The notes beneath the pieces are model-generated. The model had not been told where the DNA came from, made no database searches, and saw only the letters and a program-made list of their open reading frames with translations. From a virus: a stretch of DNA of 64,000 nt. The translations under genes and the position numbers were made by a program. The DNA lies in IMG/VR virus record IMGVR_UViG_3300021225_000468, positions 64,958 through 128,957 of that record; one strand, given 5' to 3'. This document shows, piece after piece, positions 25,548 through 58,367 of this stretch. Within the stretch, counting starts at the first letter, position 1. Each line of letters opens with the position of its first letter.

Positions 25548-27563
25548 TTGTCACCTATGTCTGTAGACTATTTTGAAGAGAACCAACCATTAAATCCTAA
25601 GAAAGTCAAAAAGGGGTCTAATACACCTATATTAGATAATTTTTCGAGGGATTTAATCAGATTGGCAGAAGAAGGTAAAATTGACCCTGTTGTCGGTAGG
25701 GAAAATGAGGTCAAAAGAATCGCTCAAATCTTATCAAGAAAAAAGAAAAACAACGCGGTCATTGTTGGAGATGCTGGTGTGGGGAAATCAGCATTAGTTG
25801 AAAAATTAGCCTTGATGATAAGTAAGGGTGATTGTCCAACAAATCTTTTGGATAAAAGAATAATGTCTTTAGATTTGACTTCATTGGTTGCGGGAACAAA
25901 ATACCGTGGACAATTTGAAGAAAGGATTAAAGCAATATTGAATGAATTACAGGAGGCACCTAATGTGATTGTTTTTATTGATGAATTACACACGATGGTT
26001 GGTGCAGGAAACGCCAGTGGTTCTATGGATGCTGCAAATATTTTAAAACCTGCTTTGGCAAGAGGTGAAATCCAATGTATTGGTGCAACAACGTTTGACG
26101 AATTCAAAAAACATATTGAAAAGGATGGTGCGTTAGTTAGGAGATTTCAAAAAATAATTTTGAAAGAACCTACAATACAAGAAACTATCACTATATTAAA
26201 TAATTTGAAAAGTTCTTATGAGGACTATCATAGAGTTAGTTATGAAGAAAATGTTATTGAATCTATTGTAAAATTATCTCACAGGTATATTACTGATAGA
26301 CAATTTCCTGATAAAAGTATCGATATATTAGATGAATTGGGTAGTGAAAAAAGAGTGTCAAATAAAATACCTGATTATATAGAAAAATTAAAGAAAAAGG
26401 CGGATGATTTAAAACTGAAAAAAATTAAGGTAGTAGAAAAACAAGATTATGAAGTTGCTGCAAAATTAAGAGATGAGGAAAAAGAATCTCGAAAAAAATA
26501 TGTAACAGAAAAAGAAAAATGGGAAAAAAGTTGTTTAGAAAATAAGATACCTGTCACTGTTGAAGATGTTTATGAAATCATTTCACAAATGACAGGGGTT
26601 CCAATCAGTAAATTAGATAATAAAGAAGTTCAAAAACTTTTAGATTTAGAAAATATTTTGTCAAAAAAAGTTATTGGACAATCTGAAGCCATTTCATCGA
26701 TATCTAAAGCAATTAGAAGAAATAGAGTAGGAATCAAAGATGCTAATAAACCCATCGGTTCATTTATATTTTTAGGTTCAACAGGTGTTGGTAAAACATT
26801 TTTGGCAAAATGTTTAGCTAAAACATTATTTGATGATTCTGAAAAAATAATCAGAATTGACATGAGTGAATACATGGAAAAACACAATGTATCTCGTTTA
26901 GTAGGTGCACCTCCTGGTTATGTGGGATATGATGAAGGTGGACAATTAACAGAGAAAGTAAAAAATAATCCGTTTTCAGTAATTTTATTTGATGAAATAG
27001 AAAAGGCACATAAAGATGTCTATAATATTTTGTTACAGATACTTGATGAGGGACATTTAACAGATTCGTTTGGTCGAAAAATTAATTTTACAAATACTTT
27101 GATAATCATGACATCAAATGTCGGAGCAAAAAAAGTATCTGAATTTGGTAATGGTATTGGATTTGCAACATCCTCAGAACAAAAATATGATGTCAAAAAA
27201 AGTATCATTCAAAAATCTTTAAAACAACAATTTAATCCTGAGTTCTTGAATAGAATTGACGATATAATTTTATTCAACAAATTGGATGACGAGACACTAA
27301 AAGTTATTGTTGAAAATGAATTGAAAAGTCTTCAAAATAGACTGAAAGACAAAAATTACACAATAACTTTTGATAGTTCAGTGATAAATAGAATTTTAGA
27401 ATTGAATAAAGAAGAAGAATACGGTGCTAGACCAATTAAAAGAATAATTCAAAATCTTATCGAAGATTTTATTAGTGAAGAAATTTTGAAAAGTAATATT
27501 GTAGAAAATGGTACTTACTTATTGAAGTATAAAGATGAAAATTTAAAAATTATAAAAAAGTAA
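25548..27563 (+). CDS. clpC: ClpC-like AAA+ ATPase lacking the N-terminal Clp repeat domain
   Basis: Two AAA modules (GDAGVGKS/FIDELH; GSTGVGKT/FDEIEKAH), UVR-like M domain (QDYEVAAKLRD), IGF loop, YGARP. Confidence 0.88.
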   Translation: MSPMSVDYFEENQPLNPKKVKKGSNTPILDNFSRDLIRLAEEGKIDPVVGRENEVKRIAQILSRKKKNNAVIVGDAGVGKSALVEKLALMISKGDCPTNLLDKRIMSLDLTSLVAGTKYRGQFEERIKAILNELQEAPNVIVFIDELHTMVGAGNASGSMDAANILKPALARGEIQCIGATTFDEFKKHIEKDGALVRRFQKIILKEPTIQETITILNNLKSSYEDYHRVSYEENVIESIVKLSHRYITDRQFPDKSIDILDELGSEKRVSNKIPDYIEKLKKKADDLKLKKIKVVEKQDYEVAAKLRDEEKESRKKYVTEKEKWEKSCLENKIPVTVEDVYEIISQMTGVPISKLDNKEVQKLLDLENILSKKVIGQSEAISSISKAIRRNRVGIKDANKPIGSFIFLGSTGVGKTFLAKCLAKTLFDDSEKIIRIDMSEYMEKHNVSRLVGAPPGYVGYDEGGQLTEKVKNNPFSVILFDEIEKAHKDVYNILLQILDEGHLTDSFGRKINFTNTLIIMTSNVGAKKVSEFGNGIGFATSSEQKYDVKKSIIQKSLKQQFNPEFLNRIDDIILFNKLDDETLKVIVENELKSLQNRLKDKNYTITFDSSVINRILELNKEEEYGARPIKRIIQNLIEDFISEEILKSNIVENGTYLLKYKDENLKIIKK

Positions 27564-30186: not shown

Positions 30187-31083
30187 ATGAAACTTTTATC
30201 ATTACTTTTTGAAAATAATAGTTACAAAACATCATACACAGGTGTCATTTTAGATAAGAATTCTACAAATAAAATATTAGAAATTGTCGATGTTCCGACA
30301 GGATGGAAACCTATCGCTCATCATATGACGATATCTTTAGGTGGAATACCTGAACAATTCAAAGATTTGTTAGGGAAAAAACAAACTTTACGAATCACTA
30401 AATTGGGTAAATCCGATAAAGCAATTGCATTAGGTGTTGATTCCAATCTAAGTTTGAATAAAATACCACACATAACTGTTGCAATTAATACCTCAATAGG
30501 GGCTAAAGCAAAAGATAGTAATGAAATCACAGAATGGGAAGAAATTGAACCATTTGAAGTGATAGGTTATGTAGAAGAAGTTCTATATCAACCACCATTT
30601 AAAACATCAGGTACACCAAAAGTATTAAACGTATTCGATTTTGACGGAACACTCATGGATTCACCAACACCTGAAGTTGGTATGCCATTATATAAAAAAT
30701 TAACAGGTAATGATTGGCCGTACAAAGGATGGTGGGGTAGATTGGAAAGTTTGACATCTTTTGATGTTAAACCTTTAGAGAAAACTAAAGAATTATATGA
30801 AAAATATACTTCAATACCTGATTCAGTAAATGTTTTGATGACAAATCGTATCGCTAAATTTGAAAATGTAGTAAAAGACAAACTCAAAGATTATTATGTT
30901 TTTGATTATTACGACTTCAAAAACGACCAAAGAGAAAAACCTGACAGAATATCTGAAATCTTGAAAAACAATCCCACAATACAACAAGTCAACATATTTG
31001 ATGATATGGAAGAACAAATAATTAAGTTCCAAAATTTCAAAGAAAAACACCCCGAATTGGAAATAAACATCTTTAAAATATAA
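30187..31083 (+). CDS. RNA-repair-type fusion: 2H phosphoesterase plus HAD phosphatase (HAD_SAK-like)
   Basis: HHMTI and PHITV (two HxT motifs); FDFDGTL..SP, GWW, LMTNR, IFDD. Confidence 0.75.
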   Translation: MKLLSLLFENNSYKTSYTGVILDKNSTNKILEIVDVPTGWKPIAHHMTISLGGIPEQFKDLLGKKQTLRITKLGKSDKAIALGVDSNLSLNKIPHITVAINTSIGAKAKDSNEITEWEEIEPFEVIGYVEEVLYQPPFKTSGTPKVLNVFDFDGTLMDSPTPEVGMPLYKKLTGNDWPYKGWWGRLESLTSFDVKPLEKTKELYEKYTSIPDSVNVLMTNRIAKFENVVKDKLKDYYVFDYYDFKNDQREKPDRISEILKNNPTIQQVNIFDDMEEQIIKFQNFKEKHPELEINIFKI

Positions 31084-31174: not shown

Positions 31175-32257
31175 ATGAAGACAATTAAAGATTTTACCCC
31201 CGAAATTAAGGCGAAGATTCCCGACTACATCTCAAGAGCAAAGGATGACCTTTATTCAGGTGTTGAAGCGGCAAATTGGAAGAAAGAAGATACCATAGTC
31301 TATCTTAATAAAGTCTATCAGTACAGTCAAAAGGAATTACCCGCAGTTGTTGTTGCCAATAACCCTGAGGAATATAAAATGTTTTTCGATTTGCTTTTTA
31401 ATGGCAAGAAGAACAAAAAATTTGAAAAAACCATTGAAAAGATTGTTGAAGACAAGAACAATGGGAAAGAATCTAAAGAGGAGTTGAACATCGAAGAAAC
31501 TCTTCGCAAAACAAAATGGAATTCAGGAAGTGCTATTGAGGCGAAATATGATTATCTGTTTCTTACCTCTGAATATGCCCGTGTTTATTTGATGTGGTAT
31601 CGGTTCATCCACAAGGAATTTGATATTCCTTTCTCAAAATCCGAAGACCTCGAATGGTTCTATCAACATATTAATCAAGCGTCCATTTCAAGGTGTTATT
31701 TCACTGAAAAAATTTGTTTGGTTCTGCGAATGCCAAGCAAGATAATCCGAAATGAGGTTGGTTTCCATTCAATTCATGAACCTGCAATTCAATTTGTTGG
31801 TGGTTTCGGTGCATATTATTTGAACGGAAGGAGAGTACCAAATTGGGTTTTTGAAAACTTTGAAAATGGTACACTCACGTTTGATATGTTGAACAATGAA
31901 AAGAATGAAGATATCCGTGCGTCAATTATCACATTGATAAAAGAAAGAAGTGGTAACGAAGGATTGATGAAGTTCTTGAATGCCACACTTGTCGATGAGA
32001 AAAAGGTTGAACATGAAAATGGGTACAGTGAAACCTTGAGAATTTGGAAAACCAAACAGAAATATTCTTTCTTGGTTGACAGCAAAGGAAATACCAATGT
32101 ACCATACGCTTGGATTGAAATGATATGTCCTTCAACAGGTCAGACATATCTGATTGATACCTGTCCAACATTCAAAGACGCAATCGAATGTGCGAAATGG
32201 CACAGACCGAAAATGGTACCAAGTTCTGTACCTTACGTTTGGCAATCAGCAAATTAA
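31175..32257 (+). CDS. DUF6745-like protein lacking the internal tetrapeptide repeat
   Basis: N-terminal FTPE...IP.Y...VY......P.VVVANNP; C-terminal ICLVLRMP..I....GFHS..EPAIQF..G...YYLNG, N.DIR, M.CPSTG..Y. Confidence 0.72.
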   Translation: MKTIKDFTPEIKAKIPDYISRAKDDLYSGVEAANWKKEDTIVYLNKVYQYSQKELPAVVVANNPEEYKMFFDLLFNGKKNKKFEKTIEKIVEDKNNGKESKEELNIEETLRKTKWNSGSAIEAKYDYLFLTSEYARVYLMWYRFIHKEFDIPFSKSEDLEWFYQHINQASISRCYFTEKICLVLRMPSKIIRNEVGFHSIHEPAIQFVGGFGAYYLNGRRVPNWVFENFENGTLTFDMLNNEKNEDIRASIITLIKERSGNEGLMKFLNATLVDEKKVEHENGYSETLRIWKTKQKYSFLVDSKGNTNVPYAWIEMICPSTGQTYLIDTCPTFKDAIECAKWHRPKMVPSSVPYVWQSAN

Positions 32258-32276
32258 TAACCAAAAAATCAATCAA

Positions 32277-32320
32277 TGTCCTGTTCAAAGAATGTACTCT
32301 TTGGGCAGGACATTTTTTTT
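32277..32320 (+). terminator. Intrinsic terminator or attenuator between the DUF6745-like gene and the mini-gene array
   Basis: TGTCCTGTTCAAAGA...TCTTTGGGCAGGACA followed by T8. Confidence 0.75.
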
Positions 32321-32323
32321 AAT

Positions 32324-32509
32324 ATGAAAAATATATTTTTTGAAATGTATCGTTTAGATACTGATGAGATTGAAACTAATCTGAGTAATTCTTTTGATGA
32401 AATTTCTATTATCCATGTAAGTGATGAATTGAATACATTACTTTATACAAATATCACACAAGAATTTTGGTTTGAACTTAAACAAGAAATTAATGAATAT
32501 TTACTCTGA
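32324..32509 (+). CDS. Array mini-gene 1 (diverged)
   Basis: MKNIFFE...ELKQEINEYLL. Confidence 0.65.
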   Translation: MKNIFFEMYRLDTDEIETNLSNSFDEISIIHVSDELNTLLYTNITQEFWFELKQEINEYLL

Positions 32510-32672
32510 AACTTTCAAATATAATTTATATTCAAATATCACAGATATATTCCAACAACGTGAATATTTTACACTCATTTATTGTAAATTAGTCAGTCAT
32601 TTAGATGACGTATTATTCATTCAACTTCAAGAAGAATTGTGTAATGAAATAAATTCATTGATAGATGGGTAA
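32493..32672 (+). CDS. Array mini-gene 2 (diverged)
   Basis: MNIYSE...EELCNEINSLIDG. Confidence 0.65.
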   Translation: MNIYSETFKYNLYSNITDIFQQREYFTLIYCKLVSHLDDVLFIQLQEELCNEINSLIDG

Positions 32673-32859
32673 TATTATAGAAAAACTAAGGACAGAACTT
32701 CGTTCACAACTTTTGTTAGAAATTGATTTAATACTTTGGTTAGTACTACAGTCAGAACTTGATTCAAAACTTCGTTCACAACTTTTGTCAGAAATTTTTT
32801 CAGAATTTGGTTTAGACCTTGAAAGAGAAATAAATTCAATTGTAGATGAATACAATTAA
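32665..32859 (+). CDS. Array mini-gene 3
   Basis: MGNIIEKL...EREINSIVDEYN. Confidence 0.75.
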   Translation: MGNIIEKLRTELRSQLLLEIDLILWLVLQSELDSKLRSQLLSEIFSEFGLDLEREINSIVDEYN

Positions 32860-33010
32860 AGAAGAATTTTGGTCAGAACTTTTGTCAGAACTTGATTCAG
32901 AACTTCATGCAGAACTTTGGTCAGAACTTTGGTCAAAACATCGGTCAGAACTTGATTCAGAATTTGATATAGAACTTGAAAGAGAAATAAAATCAATGAT
33001 TGATGGATAA
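32846..33010 (+). CDS. Array mini-gene 4 (not in ORF track)
   Basis: MNTIKEEFWSELLSELDSEL...EREIKSMIDG, 54 aa. Confidence 0.75.
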   Translation: MNTIKEEFWSELLSELDSELHAELWSELWSKHRSELDSEFDIELEREIKSMIDG

Positions 33011-33173
33011 AAATAGAAAAGAACTTTCGTCAGAACTTGATTCTAAACTTAATTCTAAATTTCATTCAGAACTTGATTGGAAACTTCATTTAGACCTTTG
33101 GTTGGGATTTGATTCAGAACATTATATACAACTTCAAAGAGAAATAAATTCAATAATAGATGGCAACTATTAG
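33003..33173 (+). CDS. Array mini-gene 5 (not in ORF track)
   Basis: MDKNRKELSSELDSKL...QREINSIIDGNY, 56 aa. Confidence 0.75.
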   Translation: MDKNRKELSSELDSKLNSKFHSELDWKLHLDLWLGFDSEHYIQLQREINSIIDGNY

Positions 33174-33342
33174 AGAAGAACTAAAGACAGAACTTGATTC
33201 AAAACTTAATTCTAAATTTAAGTCAGAACTTGATGAAATTCTTAATTTAGACCTTTGGTTTGGACTTGGTGTAGAACTTACGTCAGAACTTAATACAGAA
33301 CTCAGACCAGAAATAAAATCAATGATTGATGGACAACATTAG
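33160..33342 (+). CDS. Array mini-gene 6
   Basis: MATIREEL...PEIKSMIDGQH. Confidence 0.75.
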   Translation: MATIREELKTELDSKLNSKFKSELDEILNLDLWFGLGVELTSELNTELRPEIKSMIDGQH

Positions 33343-33538
33343 AAAAAAACTTGGTTGGGAACTTCGGTCAGAACTTGATAGAGAACTTGGTTTAGAACTT
33401 CGTCCAAACCTTCATGCAGAACTTTGGTCAGAACTTGATTGGGAACTTATTTCTGAAATAAATTCAATGATAGATGAAAAACATAAGAGAAGAACTTGTT
33501 TCAAAACTTGGTTCAGAATTTTATTCAGAACTTCATGA
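33329..33538 (+). CDS. Array mini-gene 7 (stop lost, C-terminal extension)
   Basis: MDNIRKKL...SEINSMIDEKH plus extra residues. Confidence 0.7.
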   Translation: MDNIRKKLGWELRSELDRELGLELRPNLHAELWSELDWELISEINSMIDEKHKRRTCFKTWFRILFRTS

Positions 33539-33680
33539 AGAACTTGATAGAAAACTTCATTCAGAACTTTGGTCAAAAATTCGTTTAGAAATTCGGTCAG
33601 AACTTCGGTCAGAACTTTATTTAGAACTTTATTTAGAACTTGAAAGAGAAATAAAATCAATGGTAGATGAAAAACGATAG
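33474..33680 (+). CDS. Array mini-gene 8
   Basis: MKNIREEL...EREIKSMVDEKR. Confidence 0.75.
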   Translation: MKNIREELVSKLGSEFYSELHEELDRKLHSELWSKIRLEIRSELRSELYLELYLELEREIKSMVDEKR

Positions 33681-33849
33681 AGTTGAATTACAATTAAAAT
33701 TTAAATCAGAAATTTATGCGGAATCTAAAGAAAAAATTTGGTTGCCATTTAGAATAGAACTGAGGAGAAAACTTATATTAGTATTATTTGTCGAATTTAG
33801 AGAAGACCTTCGTTCAGAAATAAATTCAATGATAAATGGACAACATTAG
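33667..33849 (+). CDS. Array mini-gene 9
   Basis: MKNDRVEL...SEINSMINGQH. Confidence 0.72.
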   Translation: MKNDRVELQLKFKSEIYAESKEKIWLPFRIELRRKLILVLFVEFREDLRSEINSMINGQH

Positions 33850-34012
33850 AGAAGAACTAAAGACAGAACTTGATTCAACACTTAATTCTAAATTTAATTC
33901 AGAACTTGATGAAAAACTTAATATAGACCTTTATTTAGTACTTTGGTTGAGACTTAGTTCAGAACTTGATTCAGAACTCAGACCAGAAATAAAATCAATG
34001 ATTGATGAATAA
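33836..34012 (+). CDS. Array mini-gene 10 (not in ORF track)
   Basis: MDNIREELKTELDSTL...PEIKSMIDE, 58 aa; close paralogue of gene 6. Confidence 0.75.
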   Translation: MDNIREELKTELDSTLNSKFNSELDEKLNIDLYLVLWLRLSSELDSELRPEIKSMIDE

Positions 34013-34193
34013 CATTAGAAAAGAACTTTTGTCAGAACTTGATTCAAAACTTTGGTCAGAACTTCATCCGAAACTTTACTCAAAAGTTGATGTAAAACTT
34101 CGATTAGAACTTGATACATTTTTTCATTTAGAACTTTATACAGAATTTGATTTAGAACTTAATAGAGAAATTTATTCAATGATATATGAATAA
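34005..34193 (+). CDS. Array mini-gene 11
   Basis: MNNIRKEL...REIYSMIYE. Confidence 0.75.
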   Translation: MNNIRKELLSELDSKLWSELHPKLYSKVDVKLRLELDTFFHLELYTEFDLELNREIYSMIYE

Positions 34194-34410
34194 CATTAGA
34201 GAAGAACTTCGGTCAGAACTTGATTCAGAACTTTGGTCAGAACTTCATACAGAACTTCGGTCAGAACTTGGTTCAGAACTTTGGTCAGAACTTGGTTCAG
34301 AACTTGATAGAGAACTTCGTTCAGAACTTTATTCAGAACTTTGGTCAGAACTTGATTCAGACCTTAATTCTGAACTTCAAAGAGAAATAAATTCAATGAT
34401 AAATGAATAG
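34186..34410 (+). CDS. Array mini-gene 12 (longest, purest SELx repeat)
   Basis: MNNIREELRSELDSELWSEL...REINSMINE. Confidence 0.78.
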   Translation: MNNIREELRSELDSELWSELHTELRSELGSELWSELGSELDRELRSELYSELWSELDSDLNSELQREINSMINE

Positions 34411-34585
34411 CTTAAAAGAAACACTAAAGACAGAACTTCATTCAAAATTTCGTTCACAACTTGATTCAGAACTTTGCACAAAACTTTGGTCAGAACTTCG
34501 TTCAGGTCTTTATTCAGAACTTTGGTCAGAACTTGTTTCAGAACTTCAAAGAGAAATAAATTCAATGATATATGAAAAACATTAA
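34403..34585 (+). CDS. Array mini-gene 13
   Basis: MNSLKETL...REINSMIYEKH. Confidence 0.75.
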   Translation: MNSLKETLKTELHSKFRSQLDSELCTKLWSELRSGLYSELWSELVSELQREINSMIYEKH

Positions 34586-34706
34586 TGAAGAACTAAAGAC
34601 AGAACTTCATTCAGAACTTTATTCAGAACTTTATTCAGAACTTGATTTAGAATTTCATTCAGAACTTGATAGAGAAATTTATTCAATGATATATGAAAAA
34701 CATTAA
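34572..34706 (+). CDS. Array mini-gene 14 (shortest; not in ORF track)
   Basis: MKNINEELKTELHSELYSEL...REIYSMIYEKH, 44 aa. Confidence 0.72.
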   Translation: MKNINEELKTELHSELYSELYSELDLEFHSELDREIYSMIYEKH

Positions 34707-34905
34707 TGAAGAACTTCATACAGAACTTCGGTTAGGACTTCGGTCAAAACTTGATTCAGAACTTCTGTCAAAACTTGATTCAGAACTTTGGTCAGAACTT
34801 GATAGAGAACTTCATTCAGAACTTGATTTAGAACTTTATTCAGAACTTGATTTAGAACTTCATTCAGAACTTGATAGAGAAATTTATTCAATGATTGATG
34901 AATAA
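34693..34905 (+). CDS. Array mini-gene 15
   Basis: MKNINEEL...REIYSMIDE. Confidence 0.75.
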   Translation: MKNINEELHTELRLGLRSKLDSELLSKLDSELWSELDRELHSELDLELYSELDLELHSELDREIYSMIDE

Positions 34906-35080
34906 CATTAGAAAAGAACTTTGGTCAGAACTTTGGTCAGAAATTTATTCAGAACTTCGGTCAGAACTTCTTTCAGAACTTCGGTTAGGACTTCGGTTAG
35001 GACTTCGGTCAAAACTTGATTCAGAACTTTGGTCAGAACTCGGAGCAGAAATAAATTCAATGATTGATGATGAACAATAA
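34898..35080 (+). CDS. Array mini-gene 16
   Basis: MNNIRKEL...AEINSMIDDEQ. Confidence 0.75.
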   Translation: MNNIRKELWSELWSEIYSELRSELLSELRLGLRLGLRSKLDSELWSELGAEINSMIDDEQ

Positions 35081-35273
35081 AATAATAACCAACACTCTTA
35101 CGGATACATATCCACCATATCTGTACGAAGTTTTATATAGAACTTTGGACAATGAAACTTATTTATATCTCAGTCCTTTTTTATTTTCAAAATTAAGTAG
35201 GGAAATGAATGATTTTTCTAACCATTTAAGATTTGAATTACAATTTGCAATAAAAGAAATGTTAGATGAATAA
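35067..35273 (+). CDS. Array mini-gene 17 (diverged)
   Basis: MMNNKII...ELQFAIKEMLDE; junctions conserved, repeat eroded. Confidence 0.65.
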   Translation: MMNNKIITNTLTDTYPPYLYEVLYRTLDNETYLYLSPFLFSKLSREMNDFSNHLRFELQFAIKEMLDE

Positions 35274-35442
35274 CATAATAGATAATATTAAAAAAGAAAT
35301 TTATTTTGAATTTCAGATAAAATTATGGTCCGAAATTCGGTCAAACATTGATATAGAATTTAGTTTAAAACTTGATTCAGAACTTGATTCAGACTTTTAT
35401 TCAGAACTCAGTACAGAAATAGATTCAATGATATATGGGTAA
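35266..35442 (+). CDS. Array mini-gene 18 (not in ORF track)
   Basis: MNNIIDNIKKEIY...TEIDSMIYG, 58 aa. Confidence 0.72.
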   Translation: MNNIIDNIKKEIYFEFQIKLWSEIRSNIDIEFSLKLDSELDSDFYSELSTEIDSMIYG

Positions 35443-35641
35443 AATAAAAATAGAACTAACGACAGAATTATATTTAAAACTTTATTCAGAATTTGGGACA
35501 GAACTTTTTTTAGAAATTGATTTAAAACTTCTGTTAGAACTTCTGTTAGAACTTGAATCAGAACTTCGGTCAGAACTTCATTCAGAACTTGATTCAGAAC
35601 TCAGACCTGAAATAAATTCAATGATAAATGAAAAACATTAG
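35435..35641 (+). CDS. Array mini-gene 19
   Basis: MGKIKIEL...PEINSMINEKH. Confidence 0.75.
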   Translation: MGKIKIELTTELYLKLYSEFGTELFLEIDLKLLLELLLELESELRSELHSELDSELRPEINSMINEKH

Positions 35642-35810
35642 AACAAGACTTAAATCAGAACTTTATTTAGAACTTCGGTCAGAACTTAATTCAGAACTTG
35701 ATTCAGAACTTTGGTCAGAACTTGATTCAGAACTTGATTTTGACCTTGATTCAGAACTTTGGTCAGAACTTGATAGAGAAATTTATTCAATGGTATATGA
35801 AAAACATTAG
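35628..35810 (+). CDS. Array mini-gene 20
   Basis: MKNIRTRL...REIYSMVYEKH. Confidence 0.75.
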   Translation: MKNIRTRLKSELYLELRSELNSELDSELWSELDSELDFDLDSELWSELDREIYSMVYEKH

Positions 35811-36003
35811 AGAAAAACTTTGGTCAAAAATTCGTTTAGAACTTCGGTCAGAACTTGAATCAGAACTTCGTTCAAAACTTGATTTAGAACTTGAATCAGA
35901 ACTTTATTTAGAACTTGAAATAGTACTTTATTCAGAACTTCGGTCAGAACTTGATTGGGAACTTTGGTCAGAAATAAATTCAATGATTGATGAAAAACAT
36001 TAG
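35797..36003 (+). CDS. Array mini-gene 21
   Basis: MKNIREKL...SEINSMIDEKH. Confidence 0.75.
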   Translation: MKNIREKLWSKIRLELRSELESELRSKLDLELESELYLELEIVLYSELRSELDWELWSEINSMIDEKH

Positions 36004-36160
36004 GGAAGAACTCGCAGAAAAAATGCACACAATCACCCTATCCATTGATTTGGAACACAAACAACATATGGATGAATTATTATATAAGAATGTGTACATC
36101 AATTTAATTGATGATGACCATGCCATAGATATGATAAATTTACAAACTATAATTCCTTAG
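35990..36160 (+). CDS. Array mini-gene 22 (terminal, diverged; not in ORF track)
   Basis: MKNIREEL start, then non-repeat sequence, 56 aa. Confidence 0.6.
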   Translation: MKNIREELAEKMHTITLSIDLEHKQHMDELLYKNVYINLIDDDHAIDMINLQTIIP

Positions 36161-36253
36161 TTTTAAAACGATTTTCACAATATTTATAAAAAAAGACCAC
36201 AAAATTTTTTTATATCAATAATAACTCTTACTTTTACTAATAAATCAACAATT

Positions 36254-36628
36254 ATGAAATTCAAAAACAGTAACTTCCATCAAGGAGACACCCAATGGTT
36301 CGCCATCAACGCCATCCCCAAAGATGCAAAAAAGATTGAAAAACAATTCATCGCAGCATCCGAAAGGTCAGGGTCCTTCCACGCACTCTTCGGAAACTAT
36401 GACATGTACGAAGTAGAAGACGGGTTCGTAATCGATGCAAAAGAAGAATGCATCCTGAACCACTCACTGAAAGAAGTACTCCAAAATACAGGAGTATCCC
36501 TCAGTGAAGCCAAAGTCCTCCCCAAAAAAGACCACAGACATACCGTAATCCCCAAAGGAATCCACTTCGTTGGTATCCAACAACGCTTCGACCCCCTCAA
36601 AGGTCTGAAAGAAAAAGTTCGTGACTAA
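36254..36628 (+). CDS. DUF6745-associated partner protein (QGD / His motif family)
   Basis: HQGD...IAASERSGSFH...DH....IPKG....IQQRFDP....VRD resembles the RQGDV / GE.TGH.H / H..I.LP.G / Q.EYDP...V.D protein usually adjacent to DUF6745 genes (from recall). Confidence 0.68.
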   Translation: MKFKNSNFHQGDTQWFAINAIPKDAKKIEKQFIAASERSGSFHALFGNYDMYEVEDGFVIDAKEECILNHSLKEVLQNTGVSLSEAKVLPKKDHRHTVIPKGIHFVGIQQRFDPLKGLKEKVRD

Positions 36629-36683
36629 TTTGGTTTTTATGCGTAAGTTTGTTATCTTTGTAATAGATTAACGTTCTTTGACA
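36629..36683 (+). promoter_or_regulatory. Bacteroidota-type promoter plus boxA-like element heading the tRNA cluster
   Basis: TTTG(36629)-N20-TATCTTTG(36653); CGTTCTTTGACA at 36672. Confidence 0.65.
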
Positions 36684-36728: not shown

Positions 36729-37012
36729 GCTCCGATGATGGAACTGGGAGACATGAAGGACTTATACAATTTGAGTGCTTAGGAGGAAACTCCTAATGTA
36801 GAATTCCGTAAATTCGGTGAACCCTGAAATGGGAATACCGAGCCAAGCCTTAGAAATAAGGAAGGTGTAGAGACTAAACACGGAACACCTAAATCGAAAG
36901 ATATGGTGAAGATATAGTCCAGACCACAAACAGAGATGGTAGCGAAAGCTATAGTGGTAAGAAAATCCTTTTCGCAGTAATGTGAGTGCGGGTTCGAATC
37001 CCGCTTGGAGCA
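36729..37012 (+). tRNA. trnL: tRNA-Leu(UAA), intron-containing (exons 36729-36763 and 36962-37012)
   Basis: Acceptor GCTCCGA/TTGGAGC-A; spliced anticodon arm AAGGA-CTT^AAAA-TCCTT; long variable arm; GGTTCGAATCC. Confidence 0.9.
36764..36961 (+). mobile_element. Group I intron (198 nt, no ORF) in the tRNA-Leu anticodon
   Basis: Follows U and ends in G; core elements AAATTCGGTGAA (P), AATACCGAGC (Q), GTAGAGACTA (R), AAGATATAGTCC (S). Confidence 0.88.
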
Positions 37013-37744: not shown

Positions 37745-37857
37745 AGTCAGGTGGCGGAATTGGTAGACGCTATGGTTAGACTGGATAGCAACCAGCATAC
37801 GGCTTTGTAACAAGCACCGAAGGTAGCACCATACAGGTTCAAATCCTGTCCTGACTA
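37745..37857 (+). ncRNA. tRNA-like RNA A (anticodon loop replaced by a multi-hairpin domain)
   Basis: AGTCAGG/CCTGACT-A, D-arm GGCGGAATTGGTAGACGC, ATGGT/ACCAT stem enclosing three small hairpins, T-arm ACAGG-TTCAAAT-CCTGT. Confidence 0.75.
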
Positions 37858-38194: not shown

Positions 38195-38306
38195 AGTCAG
38201 GTGGCGAAATTGGTAGACGCTAACGTCCCGTGTAAGAGTGTCAGGTATGCATGGTTAGCCGAAAGGTAAAGATACTCACTTACAGGTTCGAATCCTGTCC
38301 TGACTA
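38195..38306 (+). ncRNA. tRNA-like RNA C
   Basis: Same acceptor, D and T arms; about 60-nt non-canonical centre with a CC-GAAA-GG hairpin. Confidence 0.72.
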
Positions 38307-38950: not shown

Positions 38951-39060
38951 AGTCAGGTGGCGAAATTGGTAAACGCTATCCTCGCAAGGGAAATGGAGAA
39001 GCCTACTAAGTAAAGTCCTGTGGTAAAAGTCCAATGCAGGTTCGAATCCTGTCCTGACTA
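38951..39060 (+). ncRNA. tRNA-like RNA E
   Basis: AGTCAGG/CCTGACT-A; TCCT-CGCAA-GGGA arm; TGGA/TCCA-closed extra domain; T arm. Confidence 0.72.
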
Positions 39061-40765: not shown

Positions 40766-41899
40766 ATGAAAAGGGTAAAGATAACACCAAGAAATGGTTG
40801 GCAGAAGAAGGTTGAATCTCTCGGATTCGGATTTCATTCAACCAATGTTCCATATTGGGACGAATCTGCATACTATCAATTTAGTATGGATGAAATACTT
40901 GCTATTGAAAAAGCAACCGAGAATTTATGGGAAATGTGTTTGAATGCTGTTCAATATGTCATTGATAATGACATGTATGATAAGTTCAAGATACCATCAT
41001 GGATGATACCCATGATTGAAAAATCTTGGAACGAAGACCATCCCTCAATCTATGGTAGATTTGATTTGGCAGTAAAAAATGGTCAAATTAAAATGCTTGA
41101 GTTCAATGCCGATACACCAACAAGTCTATATGAGACAGGTATTGTGCAATGGTTTTGGCTCCAAGATTTTGATAAAGACAAAGACCAGTTCAATTCCGTT
41201 CATGAAAAGTTGATAGCATATTGGGAATATCTCAAAGATTATCTTTACAAACACAAAGTTCATTTTGCATGTGTTAAGAAAAGTCTTGAAGATTTAACCA
41301 CGGTTGAATACATGAGAGACACCGCCATGCAAGCAGGATTGGATACCAAACTTTTATTTATTGATGATATTGGATGGGATTCCGATAGAAGAGTTTTTGT
41401 TGACATGGAAGAGGAGGATATCAAAAACATATTTAAACTTTATCCATGGGAATGGTTGGTTGAAGAACAGTTTGGTAGAAATATTGAAATTGATTCAAAT
41501 CGAGCATTGTGGATTGAACCATCATGGAAAATGATTTTGTCAAACAAAGCGATTCTTCCAATTTTATGGTATCTCAATCCTAACCATCCACTTCTTCTCA
41601 AGTCATATTTCGACCAAGGTGATTTGGTTGATTATGTCAAAAAACCAATTCTTTCAAGAGAAGGTTCAAATATCCAAATCGTTAAAAACGGTGAGGTCAT
41701 TGAAAAGACAGGTGGTGAATATGGTAACGAAGGGTTCATCTATCAAGAACTTTTTGAACTTCCTGAATTTGACAACAACCGAGCATTAATCGGAAGTTGG
41801 GTAATCGGACAAGAACCTGCGGGTATGGGAATACGTGAACAAGAATCACTCATCACAGGAAATCTATCAAGGTTTGTACCACATCTAATTCAAGATTAA
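40766..41899 (+). CDS. Glutathionylspermidine synthase family ATP-grasp ligase (YgiC/YjfC-like)
   Basis: YWDESAYYQF, YGRFDL, EFNADTPTSL.E, FKLYPWE, SNKAILP, KPILSREG.N, GIRE. Confidence 0.92.
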   Translation: MKRVKITPRNGWQKKVESLGFGFHSTNVPYWDESAYYQFSMDEILAIEKATENLWEMCLNAVQYVIDNDMYDKFKIPSWMIPMIEKSWNEDHPSIYGRFDLAVKNGQIKMLEFNADTPTSLYETGIVQWFWLQDFDKDKDQFNSVHEKLIAYWEYLKDYLYKHKVHFACVKKSLEDLTTVEYMRDTAMQAGLDTKLLFIDDIGWDSDRRVFVDMEEEDIKNIFKLYPWEWLVEEQFGRNIEIDSNRALWIEPSWKMILSNKAILPILWYLNPNHPLLLKSYFDQGDLVDYVKKPILSREGSNIQIVKNGEVIEKTGGEYGNEGFIYQELFELPEFDNNRALIGSWVIGQEPAGMGIREQESLITGNLSRFVPHLIQD

Positions 41900-54970: not shown

Positions 54971-55790
54971 TACGGGCGGTCTATAGTCCATTTCCCTCGC
55001 AAGAGGGGATAAAGATAAACCATGAAAGTGGTATAAAGTGACTTGTTTTGGTTAAGACAGGTTGCGGTTCATCGAAAGATGAACTTGAGTAGAAAAGCGA
55101 GATATCATTAGACCTTGATTACCGAGGGTGACACTGTAGGGAAAGTGGTTTGATGACCAAGCGATGTGGGTCGTTTGGTTGAGGTGGGAACACCAATAAG
55201 AATAACTCGTAGAACTGTTGCAAGAAATATGGTCATCCAACCACATAATTGCGGAGTTCAATATTAAGGTGGTCTTAAAACCGAAAGGTAAGACTTCGTA
55301 CAGGTGGTGCTGTTGTGGTCCTTATCAAACACCTACCAAGGTGTTAGATATGAAGACAACCTAAAATATGGAGACAGGGATGTCTCAGAGAGTAGTTGTG
55401 TATTTTGTGGTTCAAAAGACTGCAAAGCACTGGTGACGGACCACTACTTTCATAATCCACAAACCAAAAACTTGCATTGTTATTGCAAAATAAAAATCAA
55501 GGAAAAGCGTCCGTCAGTTGTAATCGACAGGTCACTACTTAGTTACGAGATGTTCGTAGCCGTGAAAGGTCCCAAGCCTAACACGATTTTTATGAAAGTT
55601 CTCTAATCTCGCAAGGATTAATTGGGGAGGCATCCTCGAAGAGTAACAATTAGTAAGAGAGTGGTTTACAACTCAAGGATTGGTTAATCTAATTGACCGT
55701 GACTGAGGATTACTTCTCAAAAGGAAGTGGATATGAAGGGAACCAATAATCCTTCTAAAGATTCTCAATAAAACTTGTAATCTCAGAGTT
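54971..55790 (+). ncRNA. Large structured ncRNA, probably GOLLD-like (boundaries approximate)
   Basis: About 820 nt, GC-richer than its flanks, many hairpins (CCCTC-GCAA-GAGGG, ACCAT-GAAA-GTGGT, GTTCATC-GAAA-GATGAAC, ACC-GAAA-GGT), own promoter and terminator; size and phage/tRNA context fit GOLLD. Confidence 0.68.
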
Positions 55791-56897: not shown

Positions 56898-58367
56898 TTA
56901 TATCAATTTTTTCATCATCTGTTTAATCTCATTTATTTGTGAATTGACTTTTGTATTCTTTGCAATTTCAATTGCTTCGTCATAAGTTAAATTTGGATTT
57001 TCATAATATGCATCTTCAACTGCCGCAAGTGCAACTCCAATATCTTTTCCAGGTTTGAAACCAATATTTATTAAATCTTTACCATTTATGGGAAATTTTG
57101 GTTTTTTTGCGTCTATTTGCTGATTTAATTTATTTAATCTATCTCTAACAATTACAATTTGTTCAGGCATTGATGAATGTTCACTATGTGCAATATTATC
57201 CGCATGAATCAAATCTAAAATGTCTTCCAAGTTATCACCAACTGTAACCATAAATTTTCTGAGAGTTTTATCAGAAACATTTGATGCATCAGGTCCACCA
57301 TGTTTCAATTTCATGTGTTGTTTTACTCCCATAACAACAGCATCAATCAACTCGTTTGGATATTTTAGTCGTTGCATTATTTTCTTTACCATATCCGCAC
57401 CAACATCTTCATGTCCATAGAAATGTACAGTTCCCTCAGGTGATATTGTTTTGGTTAATGTCTTACCAATATCATGAAATAACCCCATTAATCTCGTTTT
57501 CAAATTTGCAGGTGTTTTTGACAAAACATCCATACTATGCATGAAAACATCATCTTTATGATGTACATTTTGTTTCATACCAACAGCATCATTGAATTCG
57601 CCAACTATATGTGATAATAATCCCGTTGCTTTTAATAATCTAAAACCTTTTTTAGGGTCAGGAGATACTAATATTTTATCAATTTCATCACGAATACGTT
57701 CTGAAGAAATGTTATTGATTAAATCTGCATGTTTTTTAATACTTTTTAGAACTTGTGTGTCAAACTCAAAACCATATTTACAGGCAAATCTAATCGCCCT
57801 CATCATTCTTAGAGCATCCTCCTTGAATATGACTTCAGAGTCCTGTGTTGTCCTTATTATTCCGTTTTTAATGTCCTCTATACCCTTACCACTAATATCT
57901 AATATTTCTCCCGTGGAAACGTTTTTAAGAAGACTGTTGATTGTTAAATCGCGTCTGTAAGCATCATCTTCAATATCCCCCGCAGTAACCATTGGTTTTC
58001 TTGAACCATGTAGATACACTTCTTTTCTTGGTGCAACAAACTCTAATTCTAATGGTGGTAAATTTTGATTATTATTATTTAATGATAATTTTGCAGTACC
58101 AAATTTTGGATAAACAACAGGATTACTTTCATTTTTGAAATTACCCAATGATTTTGCTAACCATGTTGCAAAATTTATACCCGCATCCAAACTACCAATA
58201 ATTGTAAAATCTAAATCTTTGGGGGTTTTTCCCATTATTTCATCACGGACAGCTCCACCTGCAAGAAACACTTTATTTTCCCATTCTGTACCTTGAATTT
58301 TGTTTTTCAAAAATTCTAAAACAGTATATTCATCTGTTGATTCTAATAACAAATTTTTTAATCTCAT
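56898..58367 (-). CDS. cca: CCA-adding tRNA nucleotidyltransferase with HD domain
   Basis: LAGGAVRD...DLDF, DAYRRDLTINSL, EDALRMMRAIRF, ERIRDE, FHDIGK, FYGHE. Confidence 0.9.
   Translation of the reverse strand: MRLKNLLLESTDEYTVLEFLKNKIQGTEWENKVFLAGGAVRDEIMGKTPKDLDFTIIGSLDAGINFATWLAKSLGNFKNESNPVVYPKFGTAKLSLNNNNQNLPPLELEFVAPRKEVYLHGSRKPMVTAGDIEDDAYRRDLTINSLLKNVSTGEILDISGKGIEDIKNGIIRTTQDSEVIFKEDALRMMRAIRFACKYGFEFDTQVLKSIKKHADLINNISSERIRDEIDKILVSPDPKKGFRLLKATGLLSHIVGEFNDAVGMKQNVHHKDDVFMHSMDVLSKTPANLKTRLMGLFHDIGKTLTKTISPEGTVHFYGHEDVGADMVKKIMQRLKYPNELIDAVVMGVKQHMKLKHGGPDASNVSDKTLRKFMVTVGDNLEDILDLIHADNIAHSEHSSMPEQIVIVRDRLNKLNQQIDAKKPKFPINGKDLINIGFKPGKDIGVALAAVEDAYYENPNLTYDEAIEIAKNTKVNSQINEIKQMMKKLI

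Follow-up and report, generated by a model that had tools for sequence, protein, structure and literature searches.

Proteins of the DUF6745 family (Pfam PF20530) of phages and prophages are known only as database entries, and literature searches for DUF6745 and PF20530 found no paper. Some of these proteins carry an internal tetrapeptide tract between an N-terminal part and a C-terminal domain. Mycobacteriophage Tweety gp54, together with Che8 gp57 and PMC gp51, is a phage accessory protein in which a very G+C-rich 12-nt/tetrapeptide repeat (Ala-Ala-x-x, 15–48 copies) lies between unique N- and C-terminal parts. Third codon positions are invariant, whereas first and second positions of the variable residues change, which the authors read as selection for variation (PMC2884959). 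Changes in repeat number let the phage escape the Phrann gp29/gp30 defense, a counter-defense activity known only from genetics in mycobacteria (PMC9262239). The central conserved (dimerization) region of Type IC restriction specificity subunits—HsdS of EcoR124I/II and EcoDXXI—features TAEL repeats, in which a 12-bp unit codes for a 4-residue, roughly one-turn helical repeat ending in Glu-Leu. HsdS has only two to three repeats, flanked by two DNA-recognition domains, and the copy number sets the spacing of two domains and, hence, the specificity (PMC3874165). In prochlorosin-type peptide libraries, many paralogous small precursor genes with constant ends and a hypervariable middle lie next to one shared protein that serves them.

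The locus described here belongs to an uncultured freshwater phage (IMG/VR record IMGVR_UViG_3300021225_000468) and was analyzed within a window of 64,000 nucleotides, positions 64,958 to 128,957 of the record. It consists of a core gene, 22 chained mini-genes of 44–74 aa, and a partner gene, all at the positions listed in the table. The original prediction had described a 360-aa gene, a terminator-like hairpin, 22 overlapping ORFs with constant ends and a hypervariable (S-E-L-x)n core, and a 124-aa HQGD/His-motif gene, and this observation is confirmed. Its interpretation—a DUF6745 system whose variable module was moved out of the protein and amplified into a cassette library acting in trans—is partly supported. 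Literature searches found no description of this arrangement.

Coordinates of the features of the locus within the window (all on the + strand)
Feature	Position	Length	Description
Core gene	31175–32257	360 aa	Repeat-less DUF6745-like protein; predicted N-terminal helical part, short Lys-rich helical hairpin (about residues 81–112) where relatives carry the tetrapeptide tract, and C-terminal α/β domain
Hairpin	32275–32314		Terminator-like; 17 pairs, 6 of them G-C; loop of 6; followed by a T run
Mini-gene 1	32324–32509	61 aa	Non-repetitive core, family-like ends
Mini-gene 2	32493–32672	59 aa	Non-repetitive core, family-like ends
Mini-genes 3–16	32665–35080: 32665–32859, 32846–33010, 33003–33173, 33160–33342, 33329–33538, 33474–33680, 33667–33849, 33836–34012, 34005–34193, 34186–34410, 34403–34585, 34572–34706, 34693–34905, 34898–35080		SELx-type cores
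Mini-gene 17	35067–35273	68 aa	Non-repetitive core inside the array, degenerate C-terminal cap
Mini-genes 18–21	35266–36003: 35266–35442, 35435–35641, 35628–35810, 35797–36003		SELx-type cores
Mini-gene 22	35990–36160	56 aa	Family N-terminal cap, non-repetitive body, no C-terminal cap
Partner gene	36254–36628	124 aa	Predicted all-β protein; conserved neighbor of the core gene

All 22 mini-genes start with ATG, which lies inside the tail of the previous mini-gene. The overlaps measure 8 nt (8 junctions), 14 nt (11 junctions), 17 nt (1 junction), or 65 nt (1 junction). Every overlap equals 2 mod 3, so the frame shifts by +1 at each junction without exception. The mini-proteins keep a 4-residue register from residue 2 to the C terminus, and Tandem Repeats Finder reports a 12-nt periodicity, for example, 69.5 copies over 34203–35040. 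Some details of the original prediction need correction: 18 of the 22 mini-genes, and not all of them, feature the SELx-type core; the C-terminal motif was found by our pattern in 19 of 22; and mini-gene 1 most likely starts after the hairpin, not at 32276. In addition, mini-gene 7 has lost its stop and runs 17 residues on. The four mini-genes with non-repetitive cores keep the size and the junctions, and mini-gene 2 is matched by the profile of the SELx mini-proteins at an E-value of 3.2e-6 (97450–97626 of the record). Near-identical contigs cover mini-gene 17 in three DNA runs of three studies (35066–35432). In total, 20 of the 22 mini-proteins are acidic, with a net charge of −2 to −15.

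In 187 core tetrads of 18 ORFs, the variable codon never reads as a stop, whereas about 12.5 stops are expected from its own base frequencies (Poisson P of 3.6e-6; this value is too optimistic because the units are related by duplication). The variable codons include 22 TGG and 20 TAT, each one step from a stop. The caps keep their residues through synonymous change: Ile is encoded by ATA 15/ATT 4 and ATA 10/ATT 6, and Leu by CTT 9/CTA 6/CTC 2/TTA 1. The tract codons are frozen by descent and not by codon preference. Glu is GAA 127 times and GAG 0 times, and CTT makes 143 of 153 Leu codons in the tract, against 15% GAG and 12% CTT in 19 large genes; CGG makes 16 of 33 Arg codons at x, against 1 of 270 elsewhere. 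A search of the 128,957-base record—estimated to be 41% complete—for a reverse transcriptase, which a diversity-generating retroelement would require together with a template repeat, returned no RVT_1 match, and the variation is not limited to positions expected from adenine mutagenesis, as TGG and CGG make 38 of the 187 x codons.

The core protein scores 15.8 bits (E-value 0.009) against PF20530, with residues 177–252 on profile positions 45–119 of 206. This is below the cut-off of 27 bits, and, hence, the protein is a distant relative and not a formal Pfam member. Of the 20 members of the core alignment, 4 match the profile at E ≤ 0.01, the best reaching 25.7 bits. However, the protein is clearly homologous to proteins carrying the domain: 10 of its 120 homologues have a precomputed PF20530 hit, at E-values of 2e-67 to 3e-57 to the window protein, and the three nearest Atlas clusters are named DUF6745 (scores of 0.94–0.95), with 80 to 98% of their members carrying PF20530. 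The structural model of the core has a pLDDT of 90.8. The premise of the original prediction, namely that DUF6745 proteins usually carry such a repeat in cis and sit beside the partner gene, passed a direct test: 31 of the 120 homologues carry a tetrapeptide tract (SELx, SQLx, or xQVx), among them SELx forms at 59 to 60% identity. The tract lies at the aligned site where the window protein—in which no period-4 segment was found—has about 20 non-repetitive residues. This site is about 30 residues after the S/N-P motif, not directly after it as originally claimed.

The partner gene was found in 26 of 44 related loci. It lies within 123 nt downstream of the core in 22 of them, 1.3 to 2.3 kb downstream in 3, and upstream in 1; in the window, it lies 4 kb downstream with the array in between. 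The structural model has a pLDDT of 88.5, and an alignment of 21 sequences features invariant D12, Q14, H43, N69-H70, D93-H94, Q109, and D124. A search for homologues returned 532 representative clusters at E ≤ 0.001, but no Pfam, PHROG, NCBIfam, or PADLOC family matches the partner. No known fold was found for the core or the partner, and no family gives a function for either.

Related loci show intermediate states. Locus L018, with a core 74% identical, has 5 mini-genes upstream and at least 6 downstream of the core. Locus L021 has one free-standing 509-aa repeat ORF between core and partner plus 3 mini-genes after the partner, and locus L023 has 12 non-repetitive mini-genes in the same gap. 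Loci L027, L028, L036, and L037 have repeat-less cores with xQVx mini-genes several kb away. On a tree of 91 cores, the cis/none state needs at least 10 changes, 7 of them forced by starred branches, and detached mini-genes recur in at least three separate clades, with different repeat flavors.

A model of the complex docks mini-protein 21 on the core with an ipSAE of 0.71 (median of three runs), whereas the best of three controls reached 0.00. The runs share at least 91% of contacts, and the mini-protein chain has a pLDDT of at least 77. The mark was reached by 58 of 80 solved complexes and 2 of 110 mismatched pairs; these counts hold only roughly, since our own alignments were used. All tetrad position-3 residues (Leu or Ile) of the mini-protein are among the contacts, while most position-1 (usually Ser) and position-4 (x) residues are not. 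The docking is a prediction expressed as a model's confidence and not proof.

Among 40 listed population differences—73 more were left out of this count—12 of 12 in core and partner are synonymous, while the mini-genes have 14 amino-acid-changing and 7 synonymous positions. This gives no sign of strong purifying selection on the mini-genes and fits relaxed constraint as well as diversifying selection; some of these differences may also be misplaced paralogues. A one-tetrad (12-nt) deletion in mini-gene 12 is seen in one virome contig. The one RNA-library run gave contigs only on the core and partner genes, and DNA carry-over cannot be excluded.

The locus is best explained, with only modest confidence, as a split form of a phage accessory module built on a DUF6745-like protein and its small partner. 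In relatives with the cis form, a slippage-prone tract of 12-nt/4-residue units (x-[E/Q]-[L/V]-x) lies between the N-terminal part and the C-terminal domain. In this view, the tract has collapsed to a short helical hairpin in this phage lineage, and free-standing copies of it, each with an N-terminal cap (M-x-N-I-R-x-E-L) and a C-terminal cap (E-I-N-S-M-I-D), are encoded as translationally chained mini-genes. That the module has been moved out and amplified is well supported by comparison, whereas its action in trans rests on the one complex model. Each acidic mini-protein would be a helix that docks on the core through its caps and its Glu-Leu face, with the Ser-x face—x being mostly D, R, W, Y, or H—pointing outward. 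One core could then be loaded with any of about 22 alternative surfaces, and new surfaces would arise by 12-nt slippage, unit shuffling, and point changes in the x codon. By analogy only, the variable surface may meet a fast-changing target in phage–host or phage–phage conflict, as the tract of Tweety gp54 does in counter-defense; this analogue is not a homologue. The anatomy, the homology, the series from cis through long trans to mini trans forms in relatives, and the codon patterns are established by the analysis; the docking is predicted; and translation of the mini-genes, the role of the partner, any target, and a function as specificity subunits or decoys remain inferences.

A further reading, not excluded but unlikely on present evidence, is that the phage keeps a germline-encoded repertoire. 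One DUF6745-like scaffold with its small His/Asp-rich partner would be loaded in trans with any of about 22 capped helices, whose outward Ser-x stripe is rich in Asp, Arg, Trp, Tyr, and His—the residue set typical of binding sites. This combinatorial set of recognition surfaces, renewed by slippage and shuffling, would serve to neutralize or evade variable host defenses or rival phages. The split into mini-genes would let the phage express many variants at once, instead of one tract length per genome as in Tweety gp54.

Other explanations are less likely. The mini-proteins may be real but act on their own as acidic helical proteins that bind or mimic something else—for example, as decoys for cis-tract DUF6745 proteins of competing phages or as mimics of the tetrapeptide coiled-coil spacer of Type I specificity subunits—with their place next to the core only recording their origin. 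Their acidity, the strong terminator-like hairpin between core and array, and the distance of the mini-genes from the core in L027, L028, L036, and L037 are in line with this unlikely reading. In addition, SELx and SQLx tracts match the central part of the PADLOC model of the Type I specificity subunit (PDLC03131): mini-gene 12 with an E-value of 2.3e-9 on profile positions 155–216 of 439 and the 509-aa ORF of L021 with 2.1e-39. However, this match is limited to the periodic tract and absent for xQVx tracts, for Tweety gp54, and for non-repetitive mini-genes, and may, hence, reflect periodicity alone. The complex model passes against its three controls, the caps resemble—by eye only—the residues flanking the cis tract, and in the window, L018, L021, and L023, the mini-genes sit at the core or between core and partner.

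The array may also be a near-neutral by-product, in which an excised and duplicated slippage-prone tract persists as expressed or unexpressed small ORFs without a specific function. The ratio of about 2:1 of amino-acid-changing to synonymous differences is close to neutral expectation, one member has lost its stop, changes at constant tetrad positions are mainly G/C to A/T as plain mutation pressure would give, and array position and content differ even from L018. This reading is improbable given the ATG, frame, and +1 junction kept in 22 of 22 mini-genes, the lack of stops in the x codon, the cap residues kept with synonymous change, the recurrence of detached mini-genes in separate clades, and the non-repetitive members being near-identical across runs of three studies. 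It is very unlikely that the region is no set of genes at all but a non-coding 12-bp repeat (protein-binding iterons, an origin, or a centromere-like site) or one long protein made by repeated programmed frameshifts or an altered genetic code. The repeat does leave several frames open on both strands, so that ORFs arise mechanically, and L021 shows that a single long repeat protein is possible. However, the variation is aligned to the codons of the SELx frame, with an entropy of 1.3 to 1.9 bits at the three x-codon bases and 0.1 to 1.3 at the other nine. Only the + strand SELx frame has an ATG in every unit, whereas antisense ORFs are listed for about half of the units and start with TTG or GTG. 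The 21 regular junctions, each with its own ATG, would need 21 frameshift events; reading on after the stop runs into another stop within a few codons; and other genes of the window read as long ORFs under table 11.

Compared with the described systems, the locus shares with Tweety gp54 the 12-nt/tetrapeptide repeat of a phage accessory module. However, gp54 is a single protein with a different repeat in cis and no mini-gene array; it has no Pfam hit, and hhalign of the core profile against it gives a probability of 0.2% (E-value 0.28). With HsdS, the resemblance is one of working principle and not of membership: the mini-proteins match the tract region alone (profile positions about 141–261 of 439) and have no recognition domains. 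Like prochlorosin-type libraries, the array features many paralogous small ORFs with constant ends and a hypervariable middle next to a shared protein, but no modifying enzyme family was recognized in the core or the partner, there are no Cys-rich cores, and the mini-proteins are homologous to a segment of the neighboring protein's relatives, which is not known for such libraries. The closest relation is to the DUF6745 proteins with an internal tract, for example, the homologues P0014, P0019, P0032, P0067, and P0103. Their N-terminal part and C-terminal domain are 45 to 60% identical over 61 to 69% of the query, the tract uses the same 4-residue unit at the aligned site (SELx in P0014, P0019, and P0032), and the same partner gene lies directly downstream. 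Here, the tract is absent from the core and is encoded instead as 22 separate capped mini-genes, so that one protein core may take many exchangeable parts.

The window derives from a large uncultured tailed phage, comprises bases 64958-128957 of a 128,957-base IMG/VR record estimated by CheckV to be 41% complete, and has a G+C content of 30%. It encodes a major head protein, a portal, and a large terminase, and, in addition, six tRNAs called by ARAGORN, a GOLLD RNA, and a group I intron. The phage further encodes an ATP-dependent protease (phrog_4871, E 3.8e-240), a glutathionylspermidine synthase homologue (phrog_6215, E 3.6e-127), and a tRNA nucleotidyltransferase (phrog_2244, E 1.1e-63). 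The GOLLD RNA is full length (Rfam RF02032, 318 bits against a gathering score of 150, model positions 1-416) and lies in a region with tRNA genes. The group I intron (Rfam RF00028, 61 bits) is located about 125 nt downstream of the partner gene at a position where ARAGORN calls no tRNA, and a 66-nt stretch within it is 94% identical to Pelagibacter phage HTVC120P. Three Rfam tRNA matches of about 110 nt (36-40 bits) are not called as tRNAs by ARAGORN and may be tRNA-like RNAs with inserts or introns. Stretches of the region occur in 19 DNA runs of 10 studies at 0.42-0.55 of sampled words; the run labels are freshwater, wastewater, wetland, aquaculture, aquatic, and groundwater metagenomes, a viral metagenome, and two unlabelled runs.

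Coordinates of the features of the module, its surroundings, and its relatives
Feature	Sequence	Position	Strand	Description
Gene upstream of the core	window	30187-31083	+	298 aa, directly upstream of the core
Syntenic counterpart of this gene	L018	8033-8929
Core gene	window	31175-32257		360 aa, DUF6745-like
Terminator-like hairpin	window	32275-32314		17 pairs, T run
Mini-ORF array	window	after the hairpin, up to 36160	+	22 mini-ORFs of 44-74 aa
Shared contig joints	window	32881-33641 and other places in the array		32881 to 33610 with 4 extra letters; 33641 back to 32923
Partner gene	window	36254-36628		124 aa
Group I intron	window	36754-36942	+	RF00028
Match to Pelagibacter phage HTVC120P	window	36811-36876		66 nt
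Rfam tRNA match	window	37745-37857	+
Rfam tRNA match	window	38195-38306	+
Rfam tRNA match	window	38951-39060	+
GOLLD RNA	window	55388-55789	+	RF02032
ATP-dependent protease	window	25548-27563		phrog_4871
Glutathionylspermidine synthase homologue	window	40766-41899		phrog_6215
tRNA nucleotidyltransferase	window	56898-58367		phrog_2244
Free-standing repeat ORF	L021	11060-12589	+	509 aa, between core and partner
ORF in the core-partner gap	L020	11101-12033	+	310 aa, in place of an array

The anatomy of the locus is as described by the original prediction, and its observation is real: a core gene, a hairpin, a run of chained mini-genes, and a partner gene follow each other. Every mini-ORF starts with ATG inside the tail of its predecessor, with overlaps of 8 nt (8 junctions), 14 nt (11), 17 nt (1), and 65 nt (1). 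All of these equal 2 mod 3, so each gene is read one base further on than the last, without exception. The 65-nt overlap arises because mini-gene 7 has lost its stop and reads 17 residues on. Of the 22 proteins, 20 are acidic with a net charge of -2 to -15, and they keep a four-residue register from residue 2 to the end, caps included. The core is of the SELx type in 18 of them, whereas numbers 1, 2, 17, and 22 have non-repetitive cores; mini-gene 2 is still matched by the profile of the 18 at E 3.2e-6. No copy lies elsewhere in the record.

Whether these ORFs are genes was analyzed on 187 core tetrads of the 18 repeat-type ORFs, leaving out the four non-repetitive ORFs, the first two tetrads, and the C-terminal cap. 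Position 1 is Ser 106, Leu 35, and Thr 13; position 2 is Glu 127 and Lys 30; position 3 is Leu 153, Phe 18, and Ile 12; and position 4 (x) is Asp 45, Arg 33, Trp 22, Tyr 21, His 15, Asn 10, Gly 8, and others. The variation follows the codons of this frame, with an entropy of 1.94, 1.30, and 1.36 bits at the three bases of the x codon against 0.13-1.27 at the other nine. The x codon is never a stop, although TGG (22) and TAT (20) are each one step from one; about 12.5 stops would be expected from the column frequencies, which gives a P of about 3.6e-6—an upper bound on significance because the units are related by duplication. In the caps, the residues are held while the codons vary: Ile is ATA 15 and ATT 4 in one column and ATA 10 and ATT 6 in another, and Leu is CTT 9, CTA 6, CTC 2, and TTA 1. 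This argues for constraint on the protein. Antisense ORFs exist for about half of the units only, begin with TTG or GTG, and are taken as by-products of a repeat without stops.

The population data, in contrast, speak against strong constraint. Among the 40 best-supported differences between the window and contigs of three DNA runs, 10 of 10 in the core and 2 of 2 in the partner are synonymous, whereas in the mini-genes 14 positions change the residue and 7 do not. Two adjacent pairs, read together, give G to E and L to K, not a stop. This 2:1 ratio is near neutral expectation and fits diversifying selection or relaxed constraint equally, and in a repeat some differences may come from misplaced paralogues. 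The tract codons are frozen by descent rather than chosen: GAA is 127 and GAG 0, and CTT makes 143 of 153 Leu, whereas in 19 large genes of the window GAG is 15% of Glu and CTT 12% of Leu. CGG makes 16 of 33 Arg at x against 1 of 270 elsewhere. Changes at the constant positions are mainly G/C to A/T, as AT-biased mutation would give. A 12-nt deletion in mini-gene 12 occurs in one virome contig. Contigs of three DNA runs from three studies share the same joints inside the array, which are either a common mosaic allele of a mini-gene or an assembly artefact in repeats and are treated as a hint only. One metatranscriptomic run gave contigs on the core (31331-31483) and the partner (36289-36639) and none on the array; as absence of cover over a repeat in contigs proves nothing and DNA may be present in that library, no conclusion on expression is drawn from it.

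The core protein features only a sub-threshold Pfam match to DUF6745, with 15.8 bits against a cut-off of 27 (E 0.009). A word-indexed search found 120 homologues at E <= 0.001, ten of which carry a precomputed PF20530 hit, and the nearest Atlas clusters are named DUF6745. The core is hence a distant relative of the family, not a formal member. The decisive point is that 31 of the 120 homologues carry a period-4 tract of 19-229 residues, with flavors including SELx, SQLx, xGQL, xQVx, and NELx. The alignment places this tract between the conserved KN at about residue 95 and the Y-x-F-L at about residue 127, where the window protein has about 20 non-repetitive residues. The premise of the original prediction—that DUF6745 proteins carry such a tetrapeptide repeat in cis—is therefore correct. 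In the AlphaFold model of the window protein (pLDDT 90.8), this stretch is a short helical hairpin formed by helices 81-95 and 101-112. The gene directly upstream of the core has weak matches to the HAD domain of "Swiss Army Knife" RNA repair proteins (E 3.8e-5, just below the cut-off) and to a tRNA-ligase phosphodiesterase domain, and it is syntenic in the closest relative, the related viral locus L018.

The partner has no family in Pfam, PHROGs, NCBIfam, or PADLOC. Ten further partner relatives had no Pfam family either, apart from a 1487-aa Sel1-repeat protein that is taken as a spurious hit. Relatives of the partner were found in 26 of the 44 related viral loci: in 22 of these 26 the gene lies within 123 nt downstream of the core, in 3 it is 1.3-2.3 kb downstream, and in 1 it is upstream. 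Of the 18 loci without it, several end at a contig edge and the rest have cores only 24-32% identical. A profile search of 1.84 billion representatives gives 532 clusters (50% identity) at E <= 0.001, nearly all of them stand-alone proteins of about 100-135 aa. The alignment shows invariant D12, Q14, H43, N69-H70, D93-H94, Q109, and D124. The predicted structure is all-beta (pLDDT 88.5); a metal or catalytic site is a guess only.

Known folds were not recognized for either protein. Foldseek against the PDB gave nothing for the partner (best E 0.32) or the core (best E 0.14), and a wide VIA-align search gave a best Z of 3.8 for the partner (rmsd 2.8, 44 residues aligned) and of 5.2 for the core (rmsd 3.5, 71 residues aligned, residues 269-351 only). 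Both are in the range of chance arrangements, and new folds are not claimed. Sequence profiles against PDB chains yielded none for the partner and one at E 0.07 for the core. Among deposited phage genomes, tblastn of the core and of the partner found no match, one homologue of the core (P0088) gave one weak match, and megablast of 12 kb gave only the 66-nt match to the Pelagibacter phage. A search for related loci with the single core protein returned no relative, whereas the profile built from the alignment of the core then found the 44 loci. A DNA pattern of three consecutive exact SEL-x units gave 9 loci in viral contigs, all unrelated simple repeats inside other contexts and none with a mini-gene array.

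The related loci show the intermediate steps, with the tract in cis, as one long detached protein, or as many mini-genes. L018 has a core that is 74% identical and the same three upstream genes, and carries 5 mini-genes upstream and at least 6 downstream of the core before the contig ends; their caps are diverged (M-D-x-I..., ...E-I-N-Q-M-I-D-N-G), and they have the same +1 chaining. L021, on a 327-kb phage contig, has one free-standing repeat ORF made almost wholly of xELx-type tetrads and, in addition, three mini-genes after the partner. L023 has 12 non-repetitive mini-genes of 53-74 aa in the same gap. L020, on a 325-kb phage contig, has in the gap an ORF with motifs that appear, by eye only, LAGLIDADG-like, and L019 and L022 have no array in the gap. 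L027, L028, L036, and L037 have repeat-less cores of 317-318 aa with xQVx mini-genes several kb away. A tree was built of 91 cores, for which proteins under 300 aa or without the C-terminal motif were dropped and 15 locus cores were added. The window sits in a clade of 12 repeat-less cores (SH-aLRT 95). The cis/none state needs at least 10 changes, 7 of them forced by well-supported branches, whereas shuffled labels give a mean of 22.8 and 0 of 500 shuffles were as low. The tract is therefore gained, lost, or detached repeatedly.

Docking of a mini-protein on the core was predicted in one complex model of the core and mini-gene 21. The median ipSAE was 0.71 against 0.00 for the best of three controls; the runs share at least 91% of contacts, and the partner chain has a pLDDT of at least 77. 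The mark was reached by 58 of 80 solved complexes and 2 of 110 mismatched pairs—counts that hold only roughly here, since custom alignments were used for both chains. Both caps touch the core in the model: the N-cap touches residues 47-53, 126, and 176-178, and the C-cap touches residues 64, 133, 172, 184-190, and 205. All position-3 residues (Leu or Ile) of the mini-protein are in the contact list, whereas most position-1 and x residues are not. In the model, the variable stripe therefore faces outward. This supports binding but does not show it.

The architectural reading is right: this is a DUF6745-like core that has lost its tetrapeptide tract, its conserved partner, and 22 chained mini-genes that are detached, capped, diversified copies of that tract. 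The interpretation of the original prediction is supported in part: its architecture is well supported by comparison, whereas binding in trans is predicted from a model only, and translation of the mini-genes, their target, and any function remain matters of inference. A module loaded in trans is favored with moderate confidence. It is possible, though unlikely, that the mini-proteins act on their own; a near-neutral by-product is less likely still, and the reading that the ORFs are not genes at all is very unlikely. A DGR finds no support within the record, which has no reverse transcriptase match but is estimated to be only 41% complete, and a RiPP-type library is not supported, as no enzyme family was recognized. 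An alternative genetic code or a frameshifted polyprotein was rejected.

If the mini-proteins do load onto the core, this would be a simple, wholly genome-encoded way for a virus to field many alternative binding surfaces on one scaffold. It would also give the first experimental handle on two large uncharacterized phage families, namely the DUF6745 family and its partner. The array is, in addition, a practical warning for annotation: gene callers rarely call such mini-genes, and only 19 database proteins match the mini-protein profile at E <= 1e-5, none of which carries an informative name. Literature searches on DUF6745, on PF20530, and on hypervariable tetrapeptide repeats of phages found no paper on this arrangement, although most subscription journals and supplements lay outside their scope.

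Slippage-variable tetrapeptide tracts are already known to tune specificity in two settings, Type I restriction enzymes and one phage counter-defence protein. The latter, Tweety gp54, features a 12-nt/AAxx tract between unique ends with invariant third codon positions, which its authors read as selection for variation (PMC2884959), and changes in repeat number let Tweety escape the Phrann gp29/gp30 defence (PMC9262239). It is not a homologue of the core, as judged by an hhalign probability of 0.2% and the lack of a Pfam hit. The TAEL repeats of Type IC HsdS subunits are a 12-bp, one-turn helical unit whose copy number sets domain spacing and specificity (PMC3874165). SELx and SQLx tracts match that part of the PADLOC specificity-subunit model, at E 2.3e-9 for mini-gene 12 and at E 2.1e-39, in 7 stretches, for the repeat protein of L021, whereas xQVx tracts, gp54, and the non-repetitive mini-genes do not; this is read as likeness of a periodic helix, not membership. 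In the present phage, the same kind of tract has been cut out of its protein and multiplied into a chained library of 22 genes next to the tract-less protein.
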